DNA of 64,000 nt from an uncultured Candidatus Saccharibacteria bacterium (GTDB lineage Bacteria > Patescibacteriota > CALEFQ01): the NCBI GenBank assembly GCA_965230955.1, contig OZ246404.1, positions 225,184 to 289,183 on the forward strand, read 5' to 3'. The number at the start of each line of letters is the position of its first letter. Positions within the stretch are counted from its first letter, which is position 1. The notes under the pieces were generated by a model that did not search any database, was not told the origin of the DNA, and saw nothing but the letters and a program-made list of their open reading frames with translations. The translations under genes were made by a program, and so were the position numbers. Below are positions 4,447-29,712 of this stretch, piece by piece.

Positions 4447-4824
4447 TTGTCGGGAGGGTCTATGTCTCAAAGGGGGGAGAATATTAGGTTGAGGAGTAAG
4501 AAATTTGCTCTTAATGTCCTAAGGTTGGTTAGGATGTTTCCCCGGTGCCAGGAAGGGAAAGTTATCGGACAGCAGTTGTTAAGAGCATCAATGTCGATCG
4601 GAGCAAATTTATTTGAAGCTTCGGCGGCAAGAAGTAGAATCGAGTTTTGCAGTATCTTGAACATTTCTTTGAAAGAGGGGGTAGAAACACGATATTGGCT
4701 AGAAATGGCCTTGGGCGCAGGATTGGTTAAAGATCATGATAGCGCGAAAATATCAGACGAATTGAACCAGATCTGCCGTATCATTACTACGATTGTTTTA
4801 AAAACCAAGCAACTTGCCAAATAA
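4447..4824 (+). CDS. four-helix-bundle protein of the 23S rRNA intervening-sequence protein family; the ATG at 4462 preceded by GGGAGGG is the likely start
   Basis: Matches the family signature (NIRLRSKKFALNVLRLVRMFP...QLLRASMSIGANLFEA...EFCSILNISLKEGVETRYWLEMA). Confidence 0.7.
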   Translation: MSGGSMSQRGENIRLRSKKFALNVLRLVRMFPRCQEGKVIGQQLLRASMSIGANLFEASAARSRIEFCSILNISLKEGVETRYWLEMALGAGLVKDHDSAKISDELNQICRIITTIVLKTKQLAK

Positions 4825-7417: not shown

Positions 7418-8677
7418 TTAGCGCATGATTCGGTTGAAAATGGCGCGGAAGCTTTCTCGGTCCAGTTTGGATTGCTCGGAGCATCGCCAGAGGAGGTAAT
7501 TGGCATTACCGTTGAGGCGGTACCAGCCGGCGACGTTTCCCATGGCTGCCAGGTCGTCGGTTTCGCCAGGCAGATGTCCCATTTCTTTCATTTCTTCATG
7601 GCGGATGTCGGCGACCAGCCTGTCGACCGGGAAATTCGATCCGGTATTCCAGAATACCGCGATTTCATCAGTGCGCGGATTGTGCTGGACGAGAACACCT
7701 CGGCATTTGCGAAATTTCATTGCCTTGTGGAGATCAGGGTTGGAATGTGACAGGCACACCAGTGCGAGGCCGCGCTGTCGTGGAGTATCTTTGACCGCTT
7801 GGTCAAAGACCGCGAGGGCGAGATCGAATCGTTGTTGTCCCATGGCTGCCTGCTGGAGGAAAAACTTGATGGCGGACAGGACTTCGAAGCGTGTCTGTTG
7901 ATTGAGGTTCGGAAAATGCTGGAGTCGAGCCAGGAGTGCAGCCGGGTGGAACCCGAATTTGTCGAGGCGCCGGCACTTCCGATCGGTGGCGAAAAACCCG
8001 CCGTATTCTTGGAGCTTCTTCATGATGCGGATTGAGGTGTCGATTTGATGCTTCTCAGCCCACTGGATCAACATATGATTGAATTCCGGGATGTGGTTGG
8101 CGTGCACAGGGCGGTCTGATGGTGTGCGGGTTCGCATTTCTGCTTCGGCCAAGATAATGTTGGTCAGATGGTCAAAATAGACTTGGTCTGACGCTTCATT
8201 GTTCTTGGCTTCTTTGGCCATGTCGGCCCAGTGCCAGAAAAACGGGGCGCCGGTTTCGGCGCGGAAGTCCACGCTGTGGGTGGTATCCACCATTCGCACA
8301 TATTCCACCATTTCGTGCAGAGGCAAGTGGGCAGGAATATTGAGAAAGTTCCAGGCCAACGAGGCGGAGCACTGTTTTTCTGTTGCGTCACGATTCAGGG
8401 CGTGCTCATCGAACAGGCTTCCGCAGATCCCAACAGGAATGACGCCATCCAGCATGAGAGTTCGCCAGTCCAGTTTCGATATTTCATTGTGGCTGACGAA
8501 ATTCACCGTGGCGTTTCTGATTTCCGGGAAAATCCTATTCCCGTACCTGCTACGGAGGAGAGTACACGCCAGAATCTCATCAAAATGAGGTCCAACGTGC
8601 GTGAGTAGCGCCGTCCATTTTATGGACGACAAAGAGATCCCGAGCGCTTGTTCGAGCGCTTGTTTGGTCCAAGGCAT
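7418..8677 (-). CDS. putative metal-dependent hydrolase resembling the MYG1/UPF0160 family (tentative)
   Basis: N-terminal LTHVGPHFDEILACTLL resembles the MYG1 T-H-x-G-x-F-H-x-D-E-x-L-A-C motif, recalled from memory. RBS GGAAGGAGGA lies upstream. Confidence 0.35.
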   Translation of the reverse strand: MPWTKQALEQALGISLSSIKWTALLTHVGPHFDEILACTLLRSRYGNRIFPEIRNATVNFVSHNEISKLDWRTLMLDGVIPVGICGSLFDEHALNRDATEKQCSASLAWNFLNIPAHLPLHEMVEYVRMVDTTHSVDFRAETGAPFFWHWADMAKEAKNNEASDQVYFDHLTNIILAEAEMRTRTPSDRPVHANHIPEFNHMLIQWAEKHQIDTSIRIMKKLQEYGGFFATDRKCRRLDKFGFHPAALLARLQHFPNLNQQTRFEVLSAIKFFLQQAAMGQQRFDLALAVFDQAVKDTPRQRGLALVCLSHSNPDLHKAMKFRKCRGVLVQHNPRTDEIAVFWNTGSNFPVDRLVADIRHEEMKEMGHLPGETDDLAAMGNVAGWYRLNGNANYLLWRCSEQSKLDRESFRAIFNRIMR

Positions 8678-11514: not shown

Positions 11515-11706
11515 ATGCCTTTATCAGAAAACAAAGTGTTTACTTTCCTGCGCGAGGCGCGGGAGGAGCTCAAAAAAGTAGTTTGGCCGTCACGCAAACA
11601 ATTGCTCCAGCACACGCTGGTGGTAATTGCGGTCAGTTTAATTGTCGCGGCAATTTTAGGCACGGTCGACATTTTATTGTCACTGGGGCTTAAAACTATT
11701 ATTTAA
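11515..11706 (+). CDS. secE: preprotein translocase subunit SecE
   Basis: 63 aa with a single C-terminal TM segment (VVWPSRKQLLQHTLVVIAVSLIVAAILG). Located upstream of nusG. Confidence 0.8.
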   Translation: MPLSENKVFTFLREAREELKKVVWPSRKQLLQHTLVVIAVSLIVAAILGTVDILLSLGLKTII

Positions 11707-11718
11707 GGAAATTGATTT

Positions 11719-12264
11719 ATGCCTAAGCAACTAGGAAAGCGGGAGCGGCGTTGGTACGTACTCCATACCTACAGCGGTTACGAAGAAAATGTCGCCCGCA
11801 ATCTGCGCCAGCGTATCGAATCATTGGACATGGAAGACAAAATCTTCCAAGTGCTGGTGCCCAAAGAGAAAAAAATTAAGATCCGGAACGGGAAGAGAAA
11901 GGTAATCGAGGAAAAGATTTTCCCGGGCTATGTGCTGGTGGAAATGATTGTGACCGACGATTCCTGGTACGTGGTGCGCAATACGCCTCAGGTCACCGGT
12001 TTCATCGGATCGGGCACGACGCCGACGCCGATTTCCGACGAAGAAATCGATTCGCTCAAAAAGCGCATGGGCGTCAAAGAGCCGAAGTACAAAGTCGATA
12101 TCGAAGTCGGCGATTCGATCAAAATCACCGATGGTCCCTTCAAGGATTTTGACGGCAAGGTCAACGCGCTGGATGAAGAGAAGGGCAAAGTCAAAGTGCT
12201 GGTCAATATGTTTGGCCGCGAGACTCCGGTTGAACTCGACTTTTTACAAGTTAAAAAAGTTTAA
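11719..12264 (+). CDS. nusG: transcription termination/antitermination factor NusG
   Basis: NGN domain (WYVLHTYSGYEENV) and KOW domain (GDSIKITDGPFKDFDGKV). Confidence 0.9.
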   Translation: MPKQLGKRERRWYVLHTYSGYEENVARNLRQRIESLDMEDKIFQVLVPKEKKIKIRNGKRKVIEEKIFPGYVLVEMIVTDDSWYVVRNTPQVTGFIGSGTTPTPISDEEIDSLKKRMGVKEPKYKVDIEVGDSIKITDGPFKDFDGKVNALDEEKGKVKVLVNMFGRETPVELDFLQVKKV

Positions 12265-12337: not shown

Positions 12338-12775
12338 TTGCATTTAAATCTTATGGCAAAGAAACCTAAGACAATCGTCAAACTTCAAATCGCTGCGGGA
12401 GCGGCGACTCCGGCCCCTCCGGTCGGTCCGGCTCTCGGCCAGCACGGCGTCAATATCAAGGAATTCGTTGATCGCTTCAATGAGAAAACGAAGAATCAGC
12501 GCGGCGATATTTTGCCGGTAGAAATTTCTATTTTTGACGACCGTTCGTTTACTTTCATCCTAAAAACTCCGCCGGCCGCGGAATTGCTCAAAAAAGCGGC
12601 CAAGGTCAAGAAAGGTTCTGGTGTGCCGCACAAAGATAAAGTCGGCACGGTCACTGACGCGCAGGTGGCAGAGATCGCCAAGAAAAAAATGCCCGACCTG
12701 AATGCCAATGATTTGCCGCAAGCCAAAAAGATCATTGCCGGGACGGCCCGCAGTATGGGACTGGAAGTAAAGTAA
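12338..12775 (+). CDS. rplK: 50S ribosomal protein L11
   Basis: [35 protein letters not shown]. Confidence 0.95.
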
Positions 12776-12818
12776 AATAAATTTTCTCACACCAATCGTG
12801 TGAGAAAATTTATTTTAT
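12776..12818 (+). terminator. intrinsic terminator after rplK
   Basis: Stem aaattttctcacac/gtgtgagaaaattt with loop caatc, followed by ATTTTAT. Confidence 0.6.
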
Positions 12819-12888: not shown

Positions 12889-13755
12889 ATGTCAGATTTA
12901 AAAACAATCTTTGGTTCCGGCCCTGTTTCAGTCGAGCAGCTGGGTGGCGGCCTGGATAAATTAAACTTTGCGGTTCATTCGCCGGAAGGTTTTTTTATTT
13001 GGCAATTATCCGCGAAACAAATCGATCGGTCTCGTTTCGACCGGCTGGAAAAATTGGCTGAATATCTGGACGGGCGCGGTATCGTCACTCGGCGTTTGGT
13101 GGCGGGGAGCCTGGTGCCTTTGCCGCAGTCATCTTTCCGCTGGTCGGCTGTTTATCGGGGTGTCCCGGGTCGCTCCCAGATGTGGTCGGCCTATTCGCCG
13201 ACTCAGATAAAAAATGCGGTCAAATATTTGGAGTTGATCCATTTGGCCGGACGTGATTTTCCCGAGCGCGCTGAATTGTGCCGGGCCGATCAGCTCTGGC
13301 GCTCTCTGAATCTGGAAACTCTTGGCGTCGAGCGGTCCGGTTATAGGGTGAATACCGAGAAGCTTCGCCGGATTATCGAGCGGTTAAACACCGGGTCGGA
13401 GAAAAACGAATTTGAGACTGTTTTGCACGGTGATTACGGTCGCGCTAATATCATTTTTTCCGATCAGCGGATCGCTGGCGTAGTGGATTTTGATCGGGCG
13501 GTAGTGGGACATCCGGTAGTTGACCTGGGGCGGTTTACGAGCTATCTTTTACTTGATACCGCTATTGCGCGTGCGACCATATTAACGGCCGTTCGTCAAA
13601 ACTATGCCGCTTGTCCCATCGCACCGGCGGATCTGGAAGCCGCGCTGCAATTGGCTTGGTTTCTGGATTGGTTGGCTTGGCGGGACACGCCGTCGGAAAT
13701 GACGCGGAAACTGATTAATCAACTTATTTCTGAACAGTTAATTTTAAAAATATGA
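12889..13755 (+). CDS. aminoglycoside-phosphotransferase-fold (protein-kinase-like) small-molecule kinase; candidate anomeric sugar kinase
   Basis: Brenner/catalytic-loop motif HGDYGRANIIF. Mg-binding VVDFD. Length 288 aa. Confidence 0.6.
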   Translation: MSDLKTIFGSGPVSVEQLGGGLDKLNFAVHSPEGFFIWQLSAKQIDRSRFDRLEKLAEYLDGRGIVTRRLVAGSLVPLPQSSFRWSAVYRGVPGRSQMWSAYSPTQIKNAVKYLELIHLAGRDFPERAELCRADQLWRSLNLETLGVERSGYRVNTEKLRRIIERLNTGSEKNEFETVLHGDYGRANIIFSDQRIAGVVDFDRAVVGHPVVDLGRFTSYLLLDTAIARATILTAVRQNYAACPIAPADLEAALQLAWFLDWLAWRDTPSEMTRKLINQLISEQLILKI

Positions 13756-14318
13756 CCCCGAAACAAATCAATGCCCGTATTTTCACCAATGAAAAAGACT
13801 TGGTCGCTTTGCAGGCCAAACTTCGCCGGCAGAAGAAAAAAATAGTTTTCACCAGCGGCAGTTTTGATTTGATCCACGTCGGACACACTCGTTACTTGGA
13901 AGAAGCCAAAGAGCGGGGCGATATCCTGGTGGTGGGGGTGAGCAGCAACAAAGCGATTCAGAAAGTCAAAGGGCCGAATAAGCCGGTTTTGGATGAAAAG
14001 GTCCGCTCGGAAATGTTGGTCTATTTGCGGGCGGTGGATTACGTGGTGATCTTGCGCCAACCGAGCTGCCTCAAAGCTTTGATGTATCTGAAGCCGGATA
14101 TTTTCATCACCGTCGGGGAGGACTGGAATCAAGGCTGTCAGGAAAGTCCGGAAGCGGAAGCTGTCCGAGACGGCGGCGGACGAGTGGTGGTCTTGCGCCG
14201 ACAATCGCCGAAAATTTCCACGACTTCGATTATTGATAATATTGTGGCGCGACAAATCATGAAGAATTTCAAGCAGGCGCTCGATCAGCATAATGGGGCA
14301 TTAAAAGAAAATGCGTGA
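13752..14318 (+). CDS. cytidylyltransferase-family nucleotidyltransferase (RfaE domain II / HldE C-terminal-like)
   Basis: FTSGSFDLIHVGHTRYLEEAKERGDILVVGVSSN...AVDYVVIL matches the (T/H)xGH nucleotidyltransferase signature and the overall RfaE-II layout. The start overlaps the upstream stop by 4 nt. Confidence 0.65.
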   Translation: MTPKQINARIFTNEKDLVALQAKLRRQKKKIVFTSGSFDLIHVGHTRYLEEAKERGDILVVGVSSNKAIQKVKGPNKPVLDEKVRSEMLVYLRAVDYVVILRQPSCLKALMYLKPDIFITVGEDWNQGCQESPEAEAVRDGGGRVVVLRRQSPKISTTSIIDNIVARQIMKNFKQALDQHNGALKENA

Positions 14319-14772
14319 CGCTTATTATCATGGCGTGATGGCCAAGCTGGACAAGTGTCCTTTTTGTGATTTAAAAGATAAGTACATTATCACCGAGCGT
14401 TCGGGTATGGTGCTGACGGTCAATCTGTTTCCTTATGTGGATTATCACCTGATGATAGTTTCCCGGCGCCATATTGAAACTCTCGGTGAACTGAAGAAAA
14501 ATGAATGGGCGGCGGTGTACTATCTGTCTAAACTGGGATTTGATTTGATTGCTCGGGTCTGGGGCGAGAAGAAAGTCAATATTTTGTATCGCGAAGGTAA
14601 AAATTCCGGAAAAAGCCTGGGCCACTGGCATTGGCATTTGATTCCTTTTGTGCAGGAATCTTTTTCTTTCAAAAAGTTTAGCGTTAAAATCGCTCCGCTG
14701 CGCTCGGCTCAGCGGCTGCGGCGTTTACTTAAAACACGTGGAAATTCAAGACGTAAAAAGAGAGCTGACTAA
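14311..14772 (+). CDS. HIT-family (histidine triad) nucleotide hydrolase/transferase
   Basis: Histidine triad HWHWHLIP. N-terminal Cys pair CPFCD. The basic C-terminal tail may be non-conserved. Confidence 0.7.
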   Translation: MRDAYYHGVMAKLDKCPFCDLKDKYIITERSGMVLTVNLFPYVDYHLMIVSRRHIETLGELKKNEWAAVYYLSKLGFDLIARVWGEKKVNILYREGKNSGKSLGHWHWHLIPFVQESFSFKKFSVKIAPLRSAQRLRRLLKTRGNSRRKKRAD

Positions 14773-15217
14773 GCATCAATTATCCGGGCACGGTAATAAA
14801 ACCGTTTTGGTCGGGATTGGCGTGCTTTACCGTGAAGGAAAATTTCTTTTGACCCGGGCGAAAAACCGCGAATACTGGTGTTTCCCAGGCGGTATATATG
14901 ATGTGGCCGGAGAAACTTTGGAAATGCTGATTGCCCGCGAGTACCGAGAAGAATTGTCGGTCGATATTGAAGTCCTCAGTCCGGTCGATAATCGCCTCGA
15001 TATCAGCAGTACCGGTAATTATTTTCGATTGTTGTCATACTATTTGGTCTGTCAAAAAGACAGTCGTACGCCCCGTTGCGTCGATAACGGCGATCCGGCC
15101 GACCTGGCTGAATTGCGCTGGGTTTCGCTTTCCGAAATCGACTCTTTGCCGACGGCGCTGGATACCAGGCGGATTGCCAAGAAGACGCAGTGGCTGGCGG
15201 AGCATGGGTTGTGTTAG
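14648..15217 (+). CDS. NUDIX hydrolase (true start uncertain; possibly TTG near 14807)
   Basis: Nudix box GGIYDVAGETLEMLIAREYREELSV fits G-x5-E-x7-RE-x2-EE. The ATG ORF start overlaps the HIT gene by 125 nt in another frame. Confidence 0.65.
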   Translation: MCRNLFLSKSLALKSLRCARLSGCGVYLKHVEIQDVKRELTKHQLSGHGNKTVLVGIGVLYREGKFLLTRAKNREYWCFPGGIYDVAGETLEMLIAREYREELSVDIEVLSPVDNRLDISSTGNYFRLLSYYLVCQKDSRTPRCVDNGDPADLAELRWVSLSEIDSLPTALDTRRIAKKTQWLAEHGLC

Positions 15218-15225
15218 TGTCGTTG

Positions 15226-15298
15226 GTCTTTTGTCTTTGGTCTTTGGCCAAATTTCAAAACCTAAAGACTAAAGACTAAAGACTAAAGACACCTCCTC
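15226..15298 (+). repeat. repeat hairpin (GGTCTTT units, then CTAAAGA x4) immediately upstream of the deaminase start
   Basis: ggtcttttgtctttggtctttgg ... cctaaagactaaagactaaagactaaagac. Arm mismatches are G-U compatible only in plus-strand RNA. Confidence 0.5.
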
Positions 15299-15300
15299 TT

Positions 15301-16236
15301 ATGCCGACAGCATTAGAATTCCCCCAAGACAAAAAAGAAATAGCCGCCTTGGCCGCTAAGCGCCCGGTGATTTTTTTTGCGGCTACGATGAGAATCAGTC
15401 CGGCTCGGTTTAAAGAATTGCTGAAAATAATCCCGCGAGGTTTTACGCCAGTTTTTGGCTTTCATCTCGAAAAAAAGATCGATCGTTTGGACGGCCCGGT
15501 GTTTTTACCGCAACGATCGTGGGCCGGGTTCAAATTACCGAAAATATCGCTGGTCGTTCAATATCGAGAAAAGGATGTCAGTGACCTAGTGGTTGCTTTA
15601 CGGCCCCGGCGTTTGGTGTTTGTTCATGGATCGTGGTGTACGGCGTTGTATTTTCGCGAGGTTTGGCATGCGGCTTTTCAAGCCAATGCTCAGCTGGCGG
15701 TGCAGGATATCAAATTGATTTCACCGTATACCAGAGCGGAAGCGGAAAAGAAAAGAGGAAAATTCGGGAATACCAGTTCGATCAAAACCAGAAAAGCTAC
15801 GATATTTGATCGACGACTTATCAGAAGTGTAGTCCAAGCGGCTTCGCAATCTCTCTGTTGGGTGCGTCAGCGCGGGGCGGTGGTGATACGCGGCCGAAAA
15901 ATTTTGGTCAGCTCGTTTAATCGTGTCTGGCCCTATGATAGTTATTGTTTGGAAAAAGGCTGTGTGCGGGAGGCAAATTTAATTCCCAGCGGACAACAAT
16001 TGGAGAAATGTTTTACCGCCCACGCCGAGACCGGTGTTATCTCTCGGGCCGCACGGCAGGGGATAAAGCTCGATGGCAGTGTCATGTATACTACAACTTT
16101 CCCTTGTATAAATTGCGCCAAGGTAATTGTCGGTAGCGGAATTAAGGAAATTGTTTTTTGGGAAGATTATGCCAATCGTGACGGCGAATTAATTCTGCGC
16201 GGCGGGGGAATCAAACTGACGAAATTGAAAATTTAA
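15301..16236 (+). CDS. dCMP/cytidine-deaminase-fold enzyme (ComEB-like) with an N-terminal domain of about 160 aa of unknown function
   Basis: C-terminal half carries zinc-binding motifs HAETGVISRAARQG...TFPCINCAKVIVGSGIKEIV and CWVRQRGAVVIRGRKILVSSFN...CLEKGC. The N-terminal 160 aa has no match known to me. Confidence 0.7.
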   Translation: MPTALEFPQDKKEIAALAAKRPVIFFAATMRISPARFKELLKIIPRGFTPVFGFHLEKKIDRLDGPVFLPQRSWAGFKLPKISLVVQYREKDVSDLVVALRPRRLVFVHGSWCTALYFREVWHAAFQANAQLAVQDIKLISPYTRAEAEKKRGKFGNTSSIKTRKATIFDRRLIRSVVQAASQSLCWVRQRGAVVIRGRKILVSSFNRVWPYDSYCLEKGCVREANLIPSGQQLEKCFTAHAETGVISRAARQGIKLDGSVMYTTTFPCINCAKVIVGSGIKEIVFWEDYANRDGELILRGGGIKLTKLKI

Positions 16237-16256
16237 TTTTGTAGGGGCGGACCTGT

Positions 16257-17747
16257 GTGTCCGCCCGCGATCATCGCCGGGCGACCACATGGGGTCGCCC
16301 CTACCAAGGCAACAATAATTTCATGCCAAAATCCAATTGGCCCAAGTATTATCACGACAAACTCTATCTCGGTGATCCGAAGTCATCGACGGCTTTGGTG
16401 ACGCTGTGGACGGTCAAAGAAGAAATTTGCCGGAAACTGCCGGCAAAAAGTTTTTGCGTGGCCGGCCAGCTCTATAGCAAGCGGGGGATCAGTTTCCTTT
16501 TGCGCAATATCTTGGCCAACCCGTCGATTCGCACGGTAATCGTTTGCGGGCGGGATGACACGAAATCGGGGCAGGCTCTGCTGGCCTTCGCCAGAAACGG
16601 CGTTGATAACGAATACCGCGTCCGTGGTACAGAAAACTTGGTGATCGACCGGGAAATTCCGCGCGATCGTTTGGAACTAGTTCGACGCCGAGTAAAATTC
16701 ATTAATTTGATAGGCATTGATGATCCGGCCAAGATTTTGCCTGCTGTCCGGCGAATCAAGCCTCAACCGCCATTCGCTCGACCGGAGATTTTCCCTCTGC
16801 CTCAGATTTCGCGCTCCCGTTGCTTGCCGGCCGAAGCCGGAATCCAAACAGTGCGCGGCCGATCGATTAGTACCGTTTGGCCGGCGATTCTGCGTCGGTT
16901 GATGCGCTTTGGGGTGGAGAGCCGACATTTTCACGGCAGCCAGGTTAAAGAGATTTTCAATTTAACCGCGGTGGTTACAGCCGAAAACTCGGCCAAGCCG
17001 AAGCTGATACCGGAATTCGGGTTTACCGCAACGGAATTAAAATCATATATCAAAAATTTTCTGAGCCCGGTCAAGGGCAAGGAAGAGTATACCTACGGCA
17101 GTCGGATGCGCGCTTTTCGAGGGATAAATCAAGTGGATGAGATGGCGCGTAAAATAAAAGGTTACGCCAATGATCGCGGAGCGCTATCGGTGCTTTGGGA
17201 TCCTACCACCGATAACGCGCCGCGCAAAGTTCCATGCTTGAGTTTGGTTCAGGCGAACGGGGAAGGCGATAAAATTAACCTGACGGCATATTTTCGCTCC
17301 AACGATATGTTTAACGGCTGGCCGCGCAATGCTTTCGCGCTTCGAGCTCTGCAGGCGGAACTTGCCAAGAAAACCGGGAAAAAGCTGGGCTGGTTGACGA
17401 CCATTTCAAATTGCGCCCATATTTATGAAAATGAATGGCCGCTGGCCGAGTCCGTGGTCAAAAAGTATTCCACGGCTTCCGCGTTCGAGCCGGATTCCCG
17501 CGGCGACGTTTTGATCGAGGTGCGCGGTAAAAAAATTGCCGTAACTCATTTATCGCCGAGCGGAGAGGTCCTGCATGACTGGTCTTTTGACGGACAAACA
17601 AAAAACGCCGCGCTCAAAATTATCAAGGATTTGCAACGCCAAGAGGTTTTTAGCGATGTTTATCACGCGGCCTATTTAGGAACCGAACTCCAGAAGGCAG
17701 TGCAGGCGATAAAACACAAAAAGAAATATGAGCAGGATAAAGAATAA
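16257..17747 (+). CDS. thymidylate-synthase (ThyA) fold enzyme with an N-terminal extension of about 195 aa: either dTMP synthase or a dUMP-modifying (hydroxymethylase-like) paralogue
   Basis: C-terminal 300 aa aligns by eye to ThyA: SVLWDP vs SAWN; catalytic PCLSLVQ vs PCHAFFQ; YFRSNDMFNGWPRNAFALRAL vs [21 protein letters not shown]; CAHIY vs DTHLY. Confidence 0.6.
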   Translation: MSARDHRRATTWGRPYQGNNNFMPKSNWPKYYHDKLYLGDPKSSTALVTLWTVKEEICRKLPAKSFCVAGQLYSKRGISFLLRNILANPSIRTVIVCGRDDTKSGQALLAFARNGVDNEYRVRGTENLVIDREIPRDRLELVRRRVKFINLIGIDDPAKILPAVRRIKPQPPFARPEIFPLPQISRSRCLPAEAGIQTVRGRSISTVWPAILRRLMRFGVESRHFHGSQVKEIFNLTAVVTAENSAKPKLIPEFGFTATELKSYIKNFLSPVKGKEEYTYGSRMRAFRGINQVDEMARKIKGYANDRGALSVLWDPTTDNAPRKVPCLSLVQANGEGDKINLTAYFRSNDMFNGWPRNAFALRALQAELAKKTGKKLGWLTTISNCAHIYENEWPLAESVVKKYSTASAFEPDSRGDVLIEVRGKKIAVTHLSPSGEVLHDWSFDGQTKNAALKIIKDLQRQEVFSDVYHAAYLGTELQKAVQAIKHKKKYEQDKE

Positions 17748-17815
17748 GATATTAAGATTTAAGATATTAAGAGTATTAAGATTTGAGATGTAAGATTTAA
17801 GATGTTGAGATATAA
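17745..17815. repeat. tandem array of TATTAAGA/ATTTAAGA octamers after the ThyA-like gene
   Basis: agatattaagatttaagatattaagagtattaagatttgagatgtaagatttaagatgttgagatataaga. Confidence 0.5.
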
Positions 17816-17949
17816 GAGGGGAAAGAAGTCGTGACTATTATTTGCCTCACTTGATTGATTGAACAGAGCGGGGTTTTTGTTTCTGATTTTCGGTTGCGGC
17901 CTTTTTAAAAAAAAGCTGCCAAACGAGTTTGGCAGCGTGAGCGATGTGT

Positions 17950-18345
17950 TTATTGTTCAGGTGGTGGCGGCGCGGGATCGGGGGTCGGTTCGAGGATCTG
18001 AAGGATCTTTTTGGCGATATTGCGGGTTTCTCGAGCCAGTTGGAAAATTCTGTATACTCGATAGGCAAACCAGGATACGGGAATCGCCATTCCTAGGAGC
18101 CAAAATTTGCCTTCCGGGATGAACAATATGCTAAACGCCAGACTTAAGCAGTAGAGGACGGCGATAGCCATTGCAGTTTGTACAGCGGTGCTTCTTCTCA
18201 TTGATTCCGTTTCTTTGAATTTCATCAGGTGCTCCCTAATCCTTCTGTGTTGTTTCATTCTTATCTCAATAAGATCGCTCATGAATTCCTCCTTTCGAAT
18301 TGTCTCTATGAGCTGTACGCTATAGAATTCTACCGAGTCTGTCAA
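17950..18345 (-). CDS. small membrane protein, unknown (real start may be the internal MSDLIEIR)
   Basis: Two TM segments and a Pro-rich C-terminus. No recognisable domain. Confidence 0.3.
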   Translation of the reverse strand: MTDSVEFYSVQLIETIRKEEFMSDLIEIRMKQHRRIREHLMKFKETESMRRSTAVQTAMAIAVLYCLSLAFSILFIPEGKFWLLGMAIPVSWFAYRVYRIFQLARETRNIAKKILQILEPTPDPAPPPPEQ

Positions 18346-18374
18346 GGCTGAGTCGAATGACCGTAACTGCCTGG

Positions 18375-19499
18375 CTAAACTCCGTCCGAGGTGCTGTTTA
18401 CATCGGCTAGACGCCGATAAACTTTTTCATAATTTCCCGACATTCGCTGGGTGGAAAAATATTTTTCCACGTGCCGACGGCAATATGATCGATCGATGCG
18501 GTCGATTTTTTTTATGGCTCGAACCATCTCCGGTACATTTTTCACGATGTAGCCTGTTTTCCCGCTGATCATAATCTCGGGAATCGCTCCGCGGCCGAAG
18601 GCGATGACCGGTGTGCCGCAAGCCAAGGCTTCAATCACGGCCAGACCGAAAGGCTCTTCCCAGGAACAAGGGAAAAGGAAGGCCTTGGCGTGCCCTAGGA
18701 AGCTAGATCGTTTCCGAGGATCGCCGATATAGCCGACATAACTGGCGGATTTCCCGAGATAGGGTAGTATTTTTTTGCAAAAATAACTCTGGGGCAGATT
18801 GCGATCATAGGAGTTGCCCGCTAGTGAGATTTTGTGTCCGGCTTTTTTCGCCGCTGCCAGCGCGAGATGCACGCCTTTCTTGGGGAGTAGACGCCCGAAA
18901 TGGATGAGGTTTTCTCCTCCTGATTTATTGAAGTGAAACTTGTGCAGATTGATGCCATTATAAACATTGGCGACAAAATGTAGGCGATGATTAGCTCGCC
19001 GCTGGTTTTTACTGATCGATACGAAATTATTTCGGCGGTTGAAATCAAGTAGTTGCTTCAGGGGGAGAGTGAGGTCGAGCGGGTCGTGAATGGTGAAGAC
19101 CGAAGGTGTTTTGATCAGCCGGCTGGAGTACATGGCTGAGCCGTTAGTCATGAAGTGATGCAGGACATCGAATTGTCCCCGTTGAGCTTGCGACATGGCT
19201 CGGGCGGTTAATTCGCTATCGGCCAGTTGTTCGTAGGTTTGCCAGGTTGATTTGAATTTTTGGCTAAACTCCAAGGCTGATACCTTTGAAGCCCTTAATT
19301 GATCATAAAAAACATGTAAATCCGGGTTGATCAGCCTGGCCTTGGTGGCCTGTCGGCTACAGGTAAAAACGGTCACTTGGTGGCCGCGCCGGATCAACTC
19401 GGAAGTCAGATCAAAAGCCAGCTCATGCGGAGCATGAATCAATTCCCGGGTGATTTCGGGGATGGTGTAGAGACTGGTCAGAAGAATTGCAATTTTCAT
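18375..19499 (-). CDS. GT4-family (GT-B fold) glycosyltransferase
   Basis: EX7E region EPFGLAVIEALACGTPVIA. N-terminal MKIAILLTS Rossmann start. Length 374 aa. Confidence 0.8.
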   Translation of the reverse strand: MKIAILLTSLYTIPEITRELIHAPHELAFDLTSELIRRGHQVTVFTCSRQATKARLINPDLHVFYDQLRASKVSALEFSQKFKSTWQTYEQLADSELTARAMSQAQRGQFDVLHHFMTNGSAMYSSRLIKTPSVFTIHDPLDLTLPLKQLLDFNRRNNFVSISKNQRRANHRLHFVANVYNGINLHKFHFNKSGGENLIHFGRLLPKKGVHLALAAAKKAGHKISLAGNSYDRNLPQSYFCKKILPYLGKSASYVGYIGDPRKRSSFLGHAKAFLFPCSWEEPFGLAVIEALACGTPVIAFGRGAIPEIMISGKTGYIVKNVPEMVRAIKKIDRIDRSYCRRHVEKYFSTQRMSGNYEKVYRRLADVNSTSDGV

Positions 19500-19641
19500 A
19501 GGATTAGCTTATACTAGCAATCGACCGTGACGGACGCAAGTCCGGCATGGCCTGTCATCCCTCTGGGGGTGATCAGCCAATTTTAACCTTAACCGTGGAA
19601 CCTTGTTTTTAAACGGGGATTATGACCACGAAGGAAATTCT

Positions 19642-20319
19642 ATGGCTAGAAGCAAACGTTATCAGGAGGAAAGAAAATTAGTGGCTGAGAAGACTTACCA
19701 GCCCCAGGAAGCGATCGCGCTTCTGAAAACAATGTCGAAAGTCAAGTTTTCACCATCGGTGGAAGTGCATATTCGCCTAAATGTTGATCCTTCCCAGAGC
19801 ACTCAGTTGATCCGCGGCTCGGTCGTAATGCCGGCTGGTACGGGGAAAGAGAGACGGGTGGCGGTATTTTGTACGCCGGAAAAAGAAAAGGAAGCCAAAG
19901 CGGCCGGAGCTGATGTGGTCGGCGGAAAAGAATTGATCAAGGAAATTAAGCTTAAAAAAACCATTAATTTCGACGCCGCGGTGGCCGAACCGGCCATGAT
20001 GCGCGAGATCGGGCCGATTGCGCCGATTCTCGGACCAAAAGGGTTGATGCCTAATCCCAAGACGGAGACAGTGACGCCGGATGTGGCTAAAGCCGTCAAA
20101 GCGTTGAAGGGCGGCAAAGTGAATTTCCGTATGGATGACGGCGGAAACCTGCATCAATTGATCGGGAAATTATCTTTTAGCGAAGCTGATCTGGTAAAAA
20201 ACCTGGAAGCTTTTCTGGAAGCTCTCAATAAACTAAAACCGGCGAAAATCAAAGGATCGCTGATCAAAAAGGCGATCGTCAAAACTTCGATGAGTCCCGC
20301 CGTAAAAATCAAGGCTTAA
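19642..20319 (+). CDS. rplA: 50S ribosomal protein L1 (the ORF-track start at 19603 is probably a 13-codon over-extension)
   Basis: MARSKRYQEERKL...SVVMPAGTGKERRVAVF. RBS AAGGAAA lies before the ATG at 19642. Confidence 0.9.
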   Translation: MARSKRYQEERKLVAEKTYQPQEAIALLKTMSKVKFSPSVEVHIRLNVDPSQSTQLIRGSVVMPAGTGKERRVAVFCTPEKEKEAKAAGADVVGGKELIKEIKLKKTINFDAAVAEPAMMREIGPIAPILGPKGLMPNPKTETVTPDVAKAVKALKGGKVNFRMDDGGNLHQLIGKLSFSEADLVKNLEAFLEALNKLKPAKIKGSLIKKAIVKTSMSPAVKIKA

Positions 20320-20341
20320 CAGCTTTGATTTTGTTTTATTT

Positions 20342-20779
20342 ATGAAAAAAGTTCGCGCTCATATTTCCGGGATTATAACTAATCTCGCACCAGACCAAAA
20401 AAAACGCTACCTCGATTTTTACGACCAACTGGCCGCGGTTTGTCGTAAGCATGGCTGGCAGACTTTTGTGCCGCATCATTTTATCGATCCTCAGCAGTTT
20501 CCGGCCTCCTCCCCGACAGAGGTTTATGAGCGGGAAATCCGCGATCTGAAGGAGGCCGATGTGGTCATTGCTTATGTCGGACAGCCTTCACTGGGAGTGG
20601 GGATAGAGCTGGAAGTCGCGCGGGCGCAAAATGCCATTGTTATTTTATTGTTTGAGACCGGCGCTGTGGTTTCGCGTTTGGTGCGCGGCAATCCGGCGGT
20701 GATTCATGAAATTGTGTTTGCCGATTTTCCCGACGCCCTAAAAAAACTGAACGGTGTTTTGGAAAAAATAGAAATCTAA
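20342..20779 (+). CDS. nucleoside 2-deoxyribosyltransferase-like / DNPH1 (Rcl)-like 2'-deoxynucleoside 5'-phosphate N-hydrolase
   Basis: EADVVIAYVGQPSLGVGIELEVARA closely resembles the DNPH1 core ADVVVAEVTQPSLGVGYELGRA (from memory). Confidence 0.55.
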   Translation: MKKVRAHISGIITNLAPDQKKRYLDFYDQLAAVCRKHGWQTFVPHHFIDPQQFPASSPTEVYEREIRDLKEADVVIAYVGQPSLGVGIELEVARAQNAIVILLFETGAVVSRLVRGNPAVIHEIVFADFPDALKKLNGVLEKIEI

Positions 20780-20786
20780 AACAATT

Positions 20787-22274
20787 ATGGAAACATTGAT
20801 CGGGCTGGAAATTCACGCCCAGCTGAAAACTAAATCAAAAATGTTCTGCCGCTGCGCCAATGATTCACAGTCGGTGCCGCCCAATACGAATATTTGTCCG
20901 ATTTGCCTGGGACATCCCGGGACTCTGCCGGTCATTAATTCTGCCGCCGTGCGTTTTACGGTATTGACGGGTTTGGCCCTGCACGGCAGAATTCCTAATT
21001 TTTCCAAATTTGATCGAAAAAGTTATTTCTACCCAGATTTGCCTAAAGGATATCAAATTTCCCAATACGATCGCCCGATCGTCGAAGGCGGGGAGATGAC
21101 TTTTACTTTTGGGGAAGAGGCGCAGCGCGTCCGTTTGCGCCGGATACATCTGGAAGAAGATGCCGGTAAACTTATCCATGCCGTCGATAAAAAAAACAGC
21201 CTGGTTGATTATAACCGTTCCGGTACGCCTTTGATGGAAATTGTGACGGAGCCTGATTTGCGGGCGCCGGCTCAGGCTCGTGTTTTCCTGCAGGAAATTC
21301 AAAAATTACTCCGAACCTTGCGAATCGCCGACGCGGATATGGAGAAAGGCCAGTTGCGCTGCGATGCCAATATCAGCGTGCGCGACGGTGATCGGACCAC
21401 GGCGATCGTCGAAATCAAAAACATGAATTCGTTTCGTTCCGTTGAGCGCGCCTTGCTATTCGAGGAAAAACGCTTAGGTGAGCTGTTTTCCGCCCAAAAG
21501 GAAGCGGAGACAGTCAAAGAGACCCGCGGTTGGAATGATGTCACCGGAGTCACGACCTCCCAGCGTTCGAAAGAAGCCGCTCATGATTACCGATATTTTC
21601 CCGAGCCGGATTTGCCGCCTTTGCGCTTTGAAGAAGAATTTATTGCCTCGGTCAAGACCGGCTTGCCGGAGATGCCGCGCGAGCGTGAAAAACGCTTGAT
21701 TGACCAACTGGGAGTAAAATCGGCTGATGCCAAGATTCTGGCGGCCGATCCGTCACTGGCTGATTTTTTTGAAGCCACGGTTTCGGAATTGGGCGCTTGG
21801 ATGGAATCGCAAAAAGAGATCGCTCCCGCCAAAATGGACAGTTATAAAAATGAATTGGCCCAGCTTTGCTCCAATTGGATCCTGAGCGAGCTGATGAAAT
21901 ACCTGAAGCGTGACGGCGCGGCGATCAATCGGATCAAAATCACCCCGGAAAATATGGCTGAGTTTATCGATCTGGTACAGCGTCAGGAAGTGAACAGTTC
22001 CGCCGCTCAGCGGGTGCTGAAGGAAATGTATTCCACCGGGGAAGACCCTTCCGATATTGTTGATAAATTGGATCTCAAGCAAGTCAGCGATGGGGATGTA
22101 ATTTCCCAGTCGGTCGATCAGGTGATAAAAGACAATCCCGGTCCGGTCGGTGATTTCAAAGGGGGAAAAAATAACGCGTTACAGTACTTGGTCGGACAAG
22201 TCATGAAATTAACCAAAGGCAAGGTCAATCCGCAAAAAGTGCTGGAGGCTCTGCGGGCTAAATTAAAAACATGA
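20787..22274 (+). CDS. gatB: Asp-tRNA(Asn)/Glu-tRNA(Gln) amidotransferase subunit B
   Basis: METLIGLEIHAQL...CPICLGHPGTLPV. Confidence 0.95.
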   Translation: METLIGLEIHAQLKTKSKMFCRCANDSQSVPPNTNICPICLGHPGTLPVINSAAVRFTVLTGLALHGRIPNFSKFDRKSYFYPDLPKGYQISQYDRPIVEGGEMTFTFGEEAQRVRLRRIHLEEDAGKLIHAVDKKNSLVDYNRSGTPLMEIVTEPDLRAPAQARVFLQEIQKLLRTLRIADADMEKGQLRCDANISVRDGDRTTAIVEIKNMNSFRSVERALLFEEKRLGELFSAQKEAETVKETRGWNDVTGVTTSQRSKEAAHDYRYFPEPDLPPLRFEEEFIASVKTGLPEMPREREKRLIDQLGVKSADAKILAADPSLADFFEATVSELGAWMESQKEIAPAKMDSYKNELAQLCSNWILSELMKYLKRDGAAINRIKITPENMAEFIDLVQRQEVNSSAAQRVLKEMYSTGEDPSDIVDKLDLKQVSDGDVISQSVDQVIKDNPGPVGDFKGGKNNALQYLVGQVMKLTKGKVNPQKVLEALRAKLKT

Positions 22275-25569: not shown

Positions 25570-26226
25570 CTAGACTTTAGGAGGTTCCGTCTCGACTCCT
25601 TTGTGCAGGATGAGAGTAGCGTCATCGAACGCGAAAGCTCGAGTGTTAAGGCCTATGTGTGTGATAAGTTTTTGATTGATCCAGCTTGATAAAAACGAAC
25701 CGGAGAGTTTATTTGCTATGGACTGGAGAAATTTGAGGATAGCATCAACTCGTGCTCTCAACCATATTATCTGCGCCTTTTGTTCGGCGAGGATGTTTTT
25801 CAATTCCTCATTTTCTGCTTTCAGTTCCCTGTAGCTCGGTCCGGTTTGCGGAATTGCAAGGCTGTACGTTGGTAGGATAGTCCCGCCGATAATTTTTTCG
25901 TACATTGCCCGCAGGTCTTCGAGGGTTTTAGCCTCGATGCTGATTTCGAGACAACGGCCGTAATGATTGCGCAGCGAGAGATCGGCTCTGGTTGAGTTCT
26001 CGATGTAGATCCCGGGATAACGGGAATTCACCAATTTGTGATCAGTAGTGATCAACTCCCGTAAGGTGAAGAATTCCTCCATTCCTGCGAGTTCTGGCAC
26101 TGCAACCCAGGTTAATGAAGGGATTTCTACATAGTTATGACCCCCATTATTTTCTACCCTCATTCCGATTTTTGCCGCCGCGTCGCTTCCGTCTTTGCCC
26201 AAATACATTCTTACCGTGTAATTCAT
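25570..26226 (-). CDS. hypothetical protein (218 aa) with a central coiled-coil; no recognisable domain
   Basis: RBS AGGAGA. Bracketed by its own promoter-like element and terminator. Confidence 0.5.
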   Translation of the reverse strand: MNYTVRMYLGKDGSDAAAKIGMRVENNGGHNYVEIPSLTWVAVPELAGMEEFFTLRELITTDHKLVNSRYPGIYIENSTRADLSLRNHYGRCLEISIEAKTLEDLRAMYEKIIGGTILPTYSLAIPQTGPSYRELKAENEELKNILAEQKAQIIWLRARVDAILKFLQSIANKLSGSFLSSWINQKLITHIGLNTRAFAFDDATLILHKGVETEPPKV

Positions 26227-29085: not shown

Positions 29086-29712
29086 TTATTTTCGAATCAG
29101 ACGGTCGACTTCTTCGAAATCGTGTACCAAGTGATGGGGATAATTACCGGTCGGCTGTTTGAGCCGGTCGGGTCGTTGCATGTGGCAATTGATGACCAAA
29201 TTGGCCGATATGCCTTGGATTCTCACTTGGTCGAGATTTTCCGGCAGGTCATCGATGAATACCAGCGGAGCTCCGTGTTTGGTGAGCAATCTTAGCAAGA
29301 TCTCCGCCTTGGTGTGTTGCGGCGAGGCAAAGTAAACGGCCTGATAGGAGATGTTGGCCGAGATCAGTTTGGATAATTGGAAAACTTCATTTCCGGCTGT
29401 GAGTATAATTACCGGAACATCATAGCTCCAAACCGAGAAGTATTTCTCGGTGTCCTCGTAGGCGCGCAATGTTTGGTCTAACCATTCATTGAGCTGACTC
29501 GGCAGGCGCTTCGGTCTGTCCGGCCGGAGCTCTCCAATGATTCGATCGAAACTGAATTGCGCTTGGTCGATCAGTGCCTGCGTCGTTTGTCTTGCCTTGG
29601 TGTCGCTGACGCGAAAACGGGACCAAATGTCGAAAAACCCTTTTAGGTTGTCGACGAATCGCACCGTGGTATCATCCAGATCAACTACAACTGCCGTAAC
29701 GATTAATGGCAT
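29086..29712 (-). CDS. HAD-superfamily hydrolase
   Basis: Motif I VVVDLDDTTV. Motif IV FIDDL. Confidence 0.6.
   Translation of the reverse strand: MPLIVTAVVVDLDDTTVRFVDNLKGFFDIWSRFRVSDTKARQTTQALIDQAQFSFDRIIGELRPDRPKRLPSQLNEWLDQTLRAYEDTEKYFSVWSYDVPVIILTAGNEVFQLSKLISANISYQAVYFASPQHTKAEILLRLLTKHGAPLVFIDDLPENLDQVRIQGISANLVINCHMQRPDRLKQPTGNYPHHLVHDFEEVDRLIRK

Follow-up and report, generated by a model that had tools for sequence, protein, structure and literature searches.

A Patescibacteria (CPR) bacterium carries, within the 64,000-nt stretch of DNA analysed here (the window), the normally contiguous genes rplK and rplA separated by a run of genes for small-molecule and nucleotide metabolism, which raises the questions of how these genes came to lie there and what they might make together. 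The first-pass annotation had seen an island of nucleotide and NDP-sugar metabolism, with sugar salvage plus dTMP synthesis as its mundane reading and pyrimidine hypermodification as its exciting one. The features are as follows:

11515-11706 (+): secE, upstream anchor (Pfam SecE, on identical contigs)
11719-12264 (+): nusG, upstream anchor (Pfam NusG, on identical contigs)
12353-12775 (+): rplK, upstream anchor (Pfam Ribosomal_L11, on identical contigs)
12773-12817: perfect 20-bp AT-rich inverted repeat, terminator-like, directly 3' of the rplK stop
12889-13755 (+): APH-fold small-molecule kinase (PF01636, 65.5 bits)
13752-14318 (+): CTP_transf_like nucleotidyltransferase, HldC/RfaE-II-, ECT- and RibL-like (61.4 bits)
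14311-14772 (+): HIT-family nucleotide hydrolase/transferase (PF01230, 43.5 bits)
14738-15217 (+): NUDIX hydrolase, 159 aa, GTG start (48.0 bits)
15301-16236 (+): dCMP deaminase (Cd) fusion, deaminase domain at residues 170-286 (53.8 bits)
16323-17747 (+): three-domain thymidylate synthase (TS), 474 aa (MtrA + Thymidylat_synt + PterinBD-DUF4346)
17745-17817: tandem array of TAAGATAT x9.6, beginning on the TS stop codon, within a variable spacer
17950-18345 (-): doubtful ORF, sub-threshold DUF454 match only
18375-19499 (-): GT4 (GT-B) glycosyltransferase, divergent from rplA (Glycos_transf_1, 74.4 bits)
19487-19515: promoter-like site TTGCAA-17-TATACT, upstream of the rplA leader
19516-19641 (+): conserved, structured 5' leader of rplA (z -3.06)
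19642-20319 (+): rplA (L1, 201.5 bits; TIGR01169, 281.6 against a cutoff of 216.3)
20342-20779 (+): predicted DNPH1-like 2'-deoxynucleoside 5'-phosphate N-glycosidase, motif QPSLGVGIELEVA (Nuc_deoxyrib_tr, PF05014, 33.5 bits)
20787-22274 (+): gatB, downstream anchor, followed by YjbQ, with miaA, miaB and thrS on the minus strand

The ORFs lie where the first-pass annotation had placed them, with rplK ending at 12775 and rplA starting at 19642, but three start codons needed refining: those of rplK and the NUDIX gene were taken from gene calls on identical contigs, and that of TS from a 100% identical 474-aa database protein. Pfam and NCBIfam searches, with family matches judged by Pfam gathering scores, identified a family for every listed ORF except that at 17950-18345(-), formerly called a small membrane protein. 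Its best Pfam match, to DUF454, scores 16.4 bits where 35.1 are required, NCBIfam returned no match, the gene calls of the identical source contigs do not include it, and the closest relative (L003) has a 130-nt spacer in its place, so that we regard the gene as doubtful. Along the kinase, nucleotidyltransferase, HIT and NUDIX genes of the window, stops and starts overlap, by 4 bp between the first two and by 8 bp between nucleotidyltransferase and HIT.

What lies between rplK and rplA is a vertically inherited CPR cluster and not a foreign island. Relatives at 76% TS identity have the same gene order, those at 59% almost the same one, and the flanks pheT-gyrB-secE-nusG-rplK ... gatB-miaA-miaB-thrS are common to distant CPR. 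A core of nucleotidyltransferase, HIT, deaminase and TS is found together in most CPR loci examined: among 47 species-representative CPR loci in which 3.5 kb or more of sequence precede TS, Cd lies no more than 4.5 kb upstream of TS in 38, and the nucleotidyltransferase and HIT lie upstream in 28 each, while none of the three is found upstream of TS in 14 DPANN and five Chloroflexota loci. Linkage of the module to rplK(-rplA) extends over several CPR phyla. In many CPR it stands directly 3' of an intact rplK-rplA pair; in the window clade rplA stands 3' of the module, and rplJ-rplL of the window organism lies 41 kb beyond. The split is a clade-specific rearrangement, the lineage differing only in where rplA sits. 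The pair is adjacent in 11 of the 28 rplK-bearing loci, where the module typically follows rplA directly, and L1 is missing from the locus in 12, which makes the split, though real, less striking in CPR than had been thought; for the OD1-L1 group, a complete lack of rpL1 has been reported (PMC5220378).

Insertion of a horizontally acquired island would fit the interruption of a normally contiguous pair, the strong hairpin 3' of rplK and the variable, repeat-bearing spacer after TS. The terminator-like hairpin, described before as a terminator of rplK's own, is species-specific, being absent in L003, where the gap between rplK and the kinase measures 30 nt. Against insertion, base composition at 13-19 kb (GC 0.47-0.52, window range 0.43-0.54) agrees with the genome, no tRNA or mobility gene (integrase, transposase) was found beside the block in the flanks within the window, and the module and both flanks are kept across CPR phyla, a synteny that already contradicts it. 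On these three grounds the label of an island is unjustified, and such an origin can practically be dismissed. It had also been proposed that recurrence of this order with plain ThyA and Cd orthologues would point to ordinary dTMP synthesis: the order does recur, in every relative down to 59% TS identity, and the link of the module to rplK spans several CPR phyla, but neither protein is a plain orthologue.

The kinase, nucleotidyltransferase and HIT protein (unit A) retain their characteristic motifs, namely the catalytic loop HGDYGRANIIF and VVDFD in the kinase, HxGH (as HVGH) and ISTT in the nucleotidyltransferase, and HWHWHLIP in the HIT protein, which also has a CxxC at its N-terminus. The nucleotidyltransferase, with orthologues across CPR, scores 129.9 bits against TIGR02199 (RfaE-II), below the cutoff of 181.5, and matches the solved structures of ECT (3elb, 70 bits) and HldC (5x9q, 68.5 bits). 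Since its fold is CTP_transf_like and not that of MurU/NTP_transferase, the AmgK/MurU paradigm once suggested for the locus does not apply. Gene fusions show the coupling of the predicted unit A pathway: in Microgenomates-type CPR, an APH domain, two CTP_transf_like domains and HIT form one protein of ~745 aa, found complete in three independent MAGs and as a partial fusion in two others, and its gene sits between a GT4/GT5-like gene and the Cd-TS genes in a co-directional string with overlapping codons. A kinase-like domain weakly similar to the window kinase (pairwise E 1e-4) is fused to the nucleotidyltransferase, in part with HIT, in L044, L052, L065 and L069, and HIT is fused to the nucleotidyltransferase in L040, L044, L052 and L065; in the window clade the kinase is a separate gene. 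The loci L044, L052, L065 and L069 also have a co-directional GT4/GT5-like gene upstream, these glycosyltransferases being matched by family and not as orthologues, and GT4 adjoins the module in Dojkabacteria too. Several CPR lineages with different flanks keep unit A and the deaminase-TS pair (unit B) in one operon. These fusions and gene strings bear out the earlier view of a coherent module, and do so more strongly than the window sequence by itself could.

Beside these, the NUDIX protein, which Dojkabacteria and Paceibacteria-type loci share with the window clade, is a candidate (d)CTP or NDP-X pyrophosphatase, with M. smegmatis MutT2 as its best solved relative (E 3e-4). The deaminase has intact zinc motifs (HAE and PCxxC), preceded by an N-terminal domain of ~170 aa with a nucleotidyltransferase-like (HUP) fold that lacks HxGH and is essentially restricted to CPR deaminases of this kind (74 clusters). 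The gene after rplA proved DNPH1/Rcl-like, as had been claimed: its best solved relative is DNPH1 (Rcl), a 2'-deoxynucleoside 5'-phosphate N-hydrolase (E 8e-8), and the PSLGVGxE segment with the catalytic Glu is conserved, though only ~60 residues align. Tmk and/or DeoC take the place of this gene in other CPR loci.

The TS combines an MtrA-like domain (residues ~1-150), a methanogen-type ThyA core (~175-395) and a PterinBD-DUF4346 domain (~395-474). It has homologues in Parcubacteria, Pacebacteria, Dojkabacteria and other CPR groups, and the three-domain form also occurs in DPANN and some Chloroflexota; in relatives, a canonical Tmk often lies directly 3' of it. The best family of the core is TIGR03283 in NCBIfam (E 9.5e-44), at 149.3 bits against a cutoff of 174.55. 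The catalytic Cys, R166/S167 and Y94 are kept, the dUMP-specifying Asn is present at the N177 position in 49 of 50 sequences, and D169 is Asp. In comparison with canonical ThyA (E. coli, L. casei, T4 Td), R127 is replaced by Gly/Ala, H147 by Leu/Met and L143 by R/N/K/S, never being Leu, Asp or Glu; the N-terminal third is unalignable at the sequence level, and DUF4346 stands in place of the C-terminal tail. Because of the sub-cutoff score, the lack of R127, the L143 position and the divergent N-terminal third and tail, it is an assumption, and not a reading of the sequence, that this TS uses folate and makes a methyl product. As for MtrA, the cobalamin-binding subunit of tetrahydromethanopterin S-methyltransferase (PDB 5laa, 5l8x), its cobalamin ligands are His84 and Glu54 (PMC4915002). 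In the TS domain the axial-ligand His84 falls in a deleted loop, any His being there in 3 of 50 sequences, Glu54 is Lys in 45 of 50, and the GAIPF-Y/F-xEN motif is not kept. The predicted TS is a non-canonical one, its MtrA-like domain devoid of cobalamin ligands.

We consider it probable that the locus is a CPR-wide, vertically inherited housekeeping cluster in which a dTMP synthesis unit is tightly linked to a unit for NDP-sugar or CDP-alcohol activation; its most likely product is dTMP, made through the unusual TS. In unit B, whose roles are predicted from the protein families and the catalytic residues kept in them, the deaminase would convert dCMP to dUMP and the TS would convert dUMP to dTMP, with Tmk next in line in many relatives; the NUDIX protein might supply dCMP from dCTP, and the DNPH1-like enzyme might cleave dNMPs for sanitation or salvage. 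The degenerate N-terminal module of the deaminase is most likely regulatory, binding a nucleotide, and the MtrA-like and DUF4346 domains may take the place of the canonical folate-closing elements, probably holding the C1-carrier pterin. In unit A, the kinase would phosphorylate a sugar or amino-alcohol, the HldC/ECT-like nucleotidyltransferase would turn the phosphate ester into NDP-X, and HIT (and NUDIX) would turn over or exchange the nucleotide-linked intermediate, the neighbouring GT4 being the likely consumer. In the window clade, rplA lies on the 3' side of the module, preceded by a promoter-like site and a leader of its own. The mundane reading, in which dTMP arises through Cd and ThyA and a phosphorylated sugar or alcohol is activated to an NDP-X for possible use by a GT, is the best supported, without the AmgK/MurU route. 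The retention of both units in one operon across differing flanks is left unexplained by the housekeeping model and counts against it.

The same housekeeping role could be served by a mechanistically new TS, in which the MtrA-like and DUF4346 domains give another C1 donor or reductant (bound flavin, corrinoid or non-folate pterin) independent of the folate/DHFR cycle. The missing His84 and Glu54 speak against this, and functional DHFR, SHMT and FolD are common in CPR, as would fit an ordinary folate cycle; 9iqc shares only 17% identity and is not among the best 60 sequence-search matches listed, so its high Z may reflect only the compact core. We hold such a mechanism unlikely, though of some weight. 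Unit A might instead serve vitamin or cofactor salvage, with NUDIX and HIT as matching pyrophosphatases: a kinase followed by an adenylyltransferase is the pattern of riboflavin to FMN to FAD (RibL-type), nicotinamide riboside (NR) to NMN to NAD, and pantetheine to dephospho-CoA. CPR are cofactor auxotrophs, NadM-Nudix and kinase-adenylyltransferase fusions are precedents, and the nucleotidyltransferase belongs to the PF01467 superfamily with RibL, NMNAT and archaeal PPAT, matching the RibL-like 3glv (50 bits) and, weakly, FAD-synthase and PPAT models. The latter, however, reach at most 35 bits against the 129.9 for RfaE-II, the sugar- and alcohol-phosphate enzymes ECT and HldC are best among solved structures, a glycosyltransferase recurrently adjoins unit A, and we know of no riboflavin, NR or pantetheine kinase with an APH fold; salvage appears quite improbable.

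In the hypermodification reading, the TS would make 5-hydroxymethyl-dUMP or another C5 derivative from Cd-supplied dUMP, unit A an NDP-sugar, and GT4 would glycosylate the base in DNA, in parallel to the phage hmU/hmC and RB69/DLP3 5hoC-arabinose clusters. The parts list does resemble theirs (TS homologue, kinase/nucleotidyltransferase, glycosyltransferases; PMC13326640), several CPR lineages with differing flanks keep the components in a single operon whose codons overlap, and a DNPH1-like gene is close by. The residue at L143 correlates with methyl versus hydroxymethyl products (PMC13326640), and its never being Leu here favours the idea, but it is Asp or Glu in known hydroxymethylases and neither here; moreover, D169 is not Asn and N177 is Asn. 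GT4 reaches the GT4-conflict model at a borderline 26.9 against a threshold of 26, but is far stronger to the generic Glycos_transf_1. DPANN and Chloroflexota carry the TS fusion without unit A, usually beside canonical Tmk; a scan of viral contigs yielded three TS-core-only relatives and no three-domain form; and profile searches of the window gave no match to defence or phage-hypermodification families, including T4 gp1-type dNMP kinase, 5-HMUDK and phage-type DNA glycosyltransferases. The cell also needs a source of dTMP, and no other candidate is visible in the window. Positive support for the exciting reading was not found, and we judge it very improbable.

The housekeeping cluster may finally be set against known systems. 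Like the phage clusters of T4 (hmC), SPO1 (hmU) and RB69/DLP3 (arabinosyl-5hoC; PMC13326640), it co-locates a ThyA homologue, deaminase/NTP pyrophosphatase, kinase, nucleotidyltransferase and glycosyltransferase, whereas it is cellular and lineage-wide, its TS has N177 and D169 in place of the phage signatures N177D and D169N, and its loci have Tmk and not a phage dNMP kinase. The TS shares the compact ThyA fold, catalytic Cys, R166/S167, N177 and Y94 with the methanogen-type enzymes (TIGR03283, MJ0757-like short ThyA), but falls below the family cutoff and carries N- and C-terminal fusions, which, unlike that of bifunctional DHFR-TS, are not DHFR. With T4 Cd and ComEB the deaminase has zinc motifs and fold in common, its N-terminal domain being extra. 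The succession of a kinase and a PF01467 nucleotidyltransferase is shared with HldE/HldC (ADP-heptose) and with ethanolamine kinase and ECT (Kennedy pathway), HldC and ECT being the best solved relatives. The CPR nucleotidyltransferase stays below the TIGR02199 cutoff, the kinase differs from the PfkB-type one of HldE, and the HIT domain of the CPR fusion occurs in neither pathway. Choline and ethanolamine kinases have the APH fold, and the two tandem CT domains of ECT have their like in the Microgenomates-type fusion.

The rplK-rplA locus most likely represents, judging from gene order and domain content, a CPR-wide operon that combines dTMP synthesis with a pathway for a nucleotide-activated sugar or alcohol, and it contains three uncharacterised protein architectures. 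Its genes in the window are:

12889-13755, APH-fold kinase (Pfam, above gathering score)
13752-14318, CTP_transf_like nucleotidyltransferase, NT (Pfam, above gathering score)
14311-14772, HIT protein (Pfam, above gathering score)
14738-15217, NUDIX protein (Pfam; start taken from gene calls on identical contigs)
15301-16236, Cd fusion of 311 aa, with the dCMP deaminase as its C-terminal 140 residues (Pfam)
16323-17747, TS fusion of 474 aa, MtrA + Thymidylat_synt + PterinBD-DUF4346 (Pfam; 100% identical database protein)
18375-19499, minus strand, GT4 glycosyltransferase (Pfam, above gathering score)
19642-20319, rplA (TIGR01169, 281.6 bits)
20342-20779, Nuc_deoxyrib_tr-family ORF, Ndt (Pfam, above gathering score)
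61160-62151, rplJ and rplL, 41 kb downstream of rplA

All the ORFs listed by the first-pass annotation exist and each family-matched one scores above its Pfam gathering threshold, the exception being a "small membrane protein" (17950-18345, minus strand), which has no above-threshold family match, is uncalled on identical contigs, is absent from the nearest relative and is doubtful as a real gene. Stop-to-start overlaps of 4, 8 and 35 bp make the kinase-NT-HIT-NUDIX string one translationally coupled unit. The TS starts with the ATG at 16323, as does the database protein; a version starting with the GTG at 16257 has no exact-sequence match. A perfect 20-bp AT-rich inverted repeat (12773-12817) directly follows the rplK stop, and in the closest relative (L003, 76% TS identity) the rplK-kinase gap is 30 nt and lacks this repeat. 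A tandem array of TAAGATAT (17745-17817; 9.6 copies, 79% matches) begins on the TS stop codon, and the TS-GT4 spacer varies among relatives, from 130 nt in L003 to two unrelated ORFs in another related locus, L008. Elsewhere in the window lie a GGDEF-domain protein (31561-32658, minus strand) and ORFs of 200-420 aa without a Pfam match at 7418-8677, 25570-26226, 29086-29712, 30432-31655, 37414-38355 and 56895-57812.

The locus had been described as an island splitting the rplK-rplA pair. Comparison with relatives of decreasing TS identity gives a different picture, as their gene orders are:

76% TS identity, order identical to the window: pheT-gyrB-secE-nusG-rplK-APH-NT-HIT-NUDIX-Cd-TS-GT4(-)-rplA-Ndt-gatB-YjbQ-miaA(-)-miaB(-)-thrS(-)
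59% TS identity: window order without HIT, with Tmk, PRTase and PNP as extra genes after rplA
44% TS identity: flanks kept; rplK, then DUF4430, DUF6580, NT, HIT, NUDIX, Cd, NUDIX, TS, NYN, Tmk, DeoC, gatB; rplA, GT4 and the kinase absent from the locus

A survey of one genome per GTDB species by TS alignment recovered 137 relatives, with 80 loci kept, drawn from many CPR phyla as well as DPANN archaea and, in small number, Chloroflexota; database relatives of the TS likewise include proteins named Parcubacteria, Pacebacteria and Dojkabacteria, which places the organism of the window in the CPR/Patescibacteria. A tblastn synteny map took in the 47 CPR loci whose upstream sequence was long enough. 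In the 4.5 kb that precede the TS it showed Cd in 38/47, the nucleotidyltransferase in 28/47 and HIT in 28/47; the same map placed none of the three near the TS in any of 19 DPANN or Chloroflexota loci, where the TS stands alone or adjoins Tmk. A frequent order in CPR is pheT-gyrB-secE-nusG-rplK-rplA-NT-Cd-HIT-TS-(Tmk)-gatB-miaA-miaB-thrS, with rplK and rplA adjacent and the module (here the NT, Cd, HIT and TS genes) directly after them; in Dojkabacteria a GT4 gene of opposite orientation comes after NT-HIT-NUDIX-Cd-TS. The marks of a genomic island, namely deviant composition, flanking mobility genes or tRNA and patchy distribution, are all missing at the locus: the GC content of the block (0.47-0.52) lies inside the range of the window, its edges are free of tRNA and mobility genes, and its synteny is conserved. 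Even if the TS proves to be ordinary, the island view of the locus is thereby corrected.

The expectation that rplK and rplA are contiguous elsewhere is borne out in only some of the 28 rplK-bearing loci: the two are adjacent in 11, whereas in the remainder they are separated or rplA is missing, with rplA 430 bp away in one, 1.3-1.7 kb away with DUF4430/DUF6580 inserted in three, arranged as in the window clade in one and absent from the locus in 12. These last 12 agree with a report that the OD1-L1 group has lost rpL1 (PMC5220378). The linkage of rplK and rplA is thus unreliable in CPR and, since the module is common there while the placement of rplA varies, the clade-specific feature is the position of rplA and not the presence of the module. 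Given the location of rplJ-rplL, the classical rplKAJL cluster lies in three separate places in this genome. A 23S_rRNA_IVP-family ORF (71.8 bits) is found between pheS and pheT (window 4447-4824). Upstream of rplA is a promoter-like site (TTGCAA-17-TATACT) with a leader of ~125 nt (window 19487-19641), which is conserved in the clade, includes the segment GTGG(G/A)ACC ... GGGGATTATGACCACGAAGGAAATT immediately before the ATG, and has a predicted fold of -46.4 kcal/mol (z -3.06); in L003 and the related locus L010 its apical part is swapped for a longer GC hairpin. An Rfam search of the window returned three tRNAs only and no known leader. The rplA leader may be an L1 autoregulatory site.

The kinase, nucleotidyltransferase and HIT genes (unit A) are tied together by fusion in three independent Microgenomates-type MAGs. 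There one ORF of 726-745 aa encodes an APH/Kdo-kinase-like domain, a pair of CTP_transf_like domains and HIT; it is preceded by a GT4/GT5-like gene and followed directly by Cd and TS:

L044 7282-9516, four-domain fusion
L052 4207-6444, four-domain fusion
L065 5491-7671, four-domain fusion

Partial fusions join the kinase with the first nucleotidyltransferase (L069) or the second nucleotidyltransferase with HIT (L040). We considered whether the second nucleotidyltransferase copy of the Microgenomates-type loci is a degenerate Cd N-terminal domain and rejected this, as it is a bona fide paralogue. These fusions indicate that the three proteins act in one pathway, and the putative pathway is kept in one predicted operon with Cd and TS even in loci that lack the ribosomal and gatB flanks. 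In L044 the stop and start codons overlap throughout the string of GT4/GT5-like gene, fusion, Cd and TS; a GT4/GT5-like gene is also directly upstream in L052, L065 and L069, a comparison by position, as orthology of the glycosyltransferases across lineages is not demonstrable. Between the kinase of the window and the kinase domain of the fusions the match is weak (E 1e-4). A natural fusion of ~745 aa would offer a convenient single protein for biochemistry.

The window kinase has the APH catalytic loop, the HIT protein HxHxHxx, and the nucleotidyltransferase intact HxGH and ISTT motifs. The last scores 129.9 bits against TIGR02199 (RfaE domain II; cutoff 181.5), and its best solved relatives are human ethanolamine-phosphate cytidylyltransferase, Burkholderia HldC, a RibL-like protein, the Fom1 cytidylyltransferase domain and TagD; the heptose-pathway partners GmhA, GmhB and a PfkB kinase were not seen in the window locus. 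The first-pass annotation had appealed to the AmgK/MurU or NahK paradigm: the kinase fold (PF01636) agrees with it, but the nucleotidyltransferase is a PF01467 CTP_transf_like protein and not PF00483, and it is this difference from the MurU fold that sets the locus apart from the AmgK/MurU paradigm. All of these folds are known to have members in ADP-sugar or CDP-alcohol metabolism, which serve as leads to the identity of X: the kinases maltokinase, NahK and choline kinase, the nucleotidyltransferases HldC and ECT, ADP-glucose phosphorylase and AspP. The natural reading is that the kinase and nucleotidyltransferase would convert X via X-phosphate to NDP-X, HIT and NUDIX would mediate turnover or exchange of the nucleotide-linked product, and the glycosyltransferase would be the consumer of NDP-X; salvage of cofactors (FAD, NAD or CoA) is a weaker alternative for unit A.

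The TS joins an MtrA-like domain, a methanogen-type ThyA core and PterinBD-DUF4346. A confident structure model (pLDDT 87) shows the ThyA fold, and the score against the TIGR03283 equivalog for methanogen-type TS is 149.3 bits, below the 174.55 cutoff. In a census of 50 family members (E. coli numbering), C146, P145, R166, S167 and Y94 are invariant, H207 is His in 32 and Gln in 14, and Y209 is Tyr in 46; the window protein carries all seven. N177 is Asn in 49/50, including window N336, and D169 is Asp in 40/50 and Ala in 9/50. The cofactor side is divergent: across the 50 sequences the Arg126'/Arg127' partner-subunit pair of canonical ThyA is not kept (R126 is Arg in 42, R127 never, being always Gly, Ala or Met), the H147 position is Leu or Met, and that of L143 is R (23), N (14), K (7), S (5) or H (1), never Leu and never Asp/Glu. 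At the sequence level, alignments to solved ThyA span only Y94 to about Y209, leaving the canonical folate-binding region around I79/W80/W83 outside them. The canonical C-terminal tail is replaced by DUF4346, which has no informative structural neighbour. Asn at N177 marks uracil rather than cytosine specificity, a bulky hydrophobic L143 is reported to exclude water and give the methyl product, and the phage signatures are N177D, D169N for 5hoC and L143D/E for the hydroxymethylase (PMC13326640). By these signatures the TS is predicted to act on dUMP and not to be a 5-hydroxylase, while the methyl-versus-hydroxymethyl indicator L143 is in neither known state in the family. The genomic setting favours a genuine thymidylate synthase, with Cd upstream, Tmk downstream in many CPR/DPANN loci and presence in free-living Chloroflexota.

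A canonical cobalamin site in the MtrA-like domain was considered and rejected because His84 and Glu54 are missing; the GAIPF-Y/F-xEN segment is likewise lacking in this domain. In Paceibacteria-type loci (L009 5991-6996; also L013, L014, L016, L017 and L078) DUF4430 and a DUF6580 membrane protein lie between rplK and the module; DUF4430 is the transcobalamin-like beta domain, and its occurrence near a TS that includes an MtrA-like domain might be a hint of vitamin uptake. The structure 9iqc is not among the best 60 PDB matches listed in the TS profile search, and hence we claim no sequence-level link to flavin-dependent ThyA homologues. Functional folA, glyA and folD are common in CPR (PMC11974145). 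In none of the loci did a tblastn search with E. coli FolA, an approximate query, detect a DHFR less than 10 kb from the TS. Our literature searches found no enzyme-level account of dTMP synthesis in CPR/DPANN, and nothing specific on DUF4346, MJ0757, 9IQC or MtrA-like domains with thymidylate synthase. Three IMG/VR contigs (L090, L091, L092) carry a TS core related to fusion residues ~178-375, without the MtrA-like or DUF4346 domains.

The Cd fusion has the CDA fold and, for zinc binding and catalysis, the HAE and PCxxC motifs. Among 1.84 billion representatives, a profile search picked up its N-terminal domain in only 74 clusters, most of which are ~300-350 aa with the domain N-terminal, matching the Cd fusions in length and architecture, the remainder being mainly shorter sequences. 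The resemblance of this domain to the neighboring nucleotidyltransferase is claimed as one of fold and not as proven homology, the profile-profile match being weak (probability 10-25%); we infer that it is a degenerate nucleotide-binding module, probably allosteric. The best solved relative of the NUDIX protein is M. smegmatis MutT2 (E 3e-4), a dCTP/5-methyl-dCTP pyrophosphatase, weakly suggesting a supply of dCMP for the deaminase. An HD-domain protein of 411 aa encoded elsewhere in the window (45690-46925, minus strand) may bear on dNTP pools.

The hypermodification idea, taken to its furthest, would make the operon a cellular equivalent of the phage clusters for base hypermodification: the non-canonical ThyA-fold fusion would produce a C5-modified dUMP, such as hydroxymethyl-dUMP, for the kinase, nucleotidyltransferase, HIT and GT4 proteins to decorate. 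If so, modified thymine would be present in the DNA of many CPR bacteria. The component lists of the phage clusters and the operon are truly parallel and the linkage of units A and B (the latter being Cd and TS) is persistent, and these two points make up the whole of the positive evidence. Against it, the cytosine-specifying and hydroxylase signatures are both absent, the TS is found in two further phyla where unit A is missing, and the context is that of a core genome, neither viral nor mobile, where the neighboring kinase is Tmk. Moreover, viral contigs yielded the three core-only relatives and no three-domain TS, and PADLOC and PHROGs gave no match to phage-specific kinase or DNA glycosyltransferase families, the locus drawing only generic HIT, NUDIX and deaminase cross-matches from the former and generic TS, Cd, GT and NUDIX families from the latter. 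The assignment of the ORF after rplA as DNPH1/Rcl-like stands (DNPH1 match E 8e-8, PSLGVGxE conserved). The equivalent position in other CPR is taken by Tmk and/or DeoC, a neighborhood that fits deoxynucleotide salvage and sanitation better than a dedicated hmdUMP role. Hypermodification is thus highly improbable.

CPR and DPANN together account for a very large part of microbial diversity and rely on scavenging for their building blocks. Newly defined here are a putative kinase/nucleotidyltransferase/HIT pathway, linked by natural fusions and sharing an operon with dTMP synthesis, a dCMP deaminase that carries an extra, lineage-restricted domain for probable nucleotide binding, and a widespread three-domain TS whose cofactor-side residues are unlike those of every characterised ThyA.
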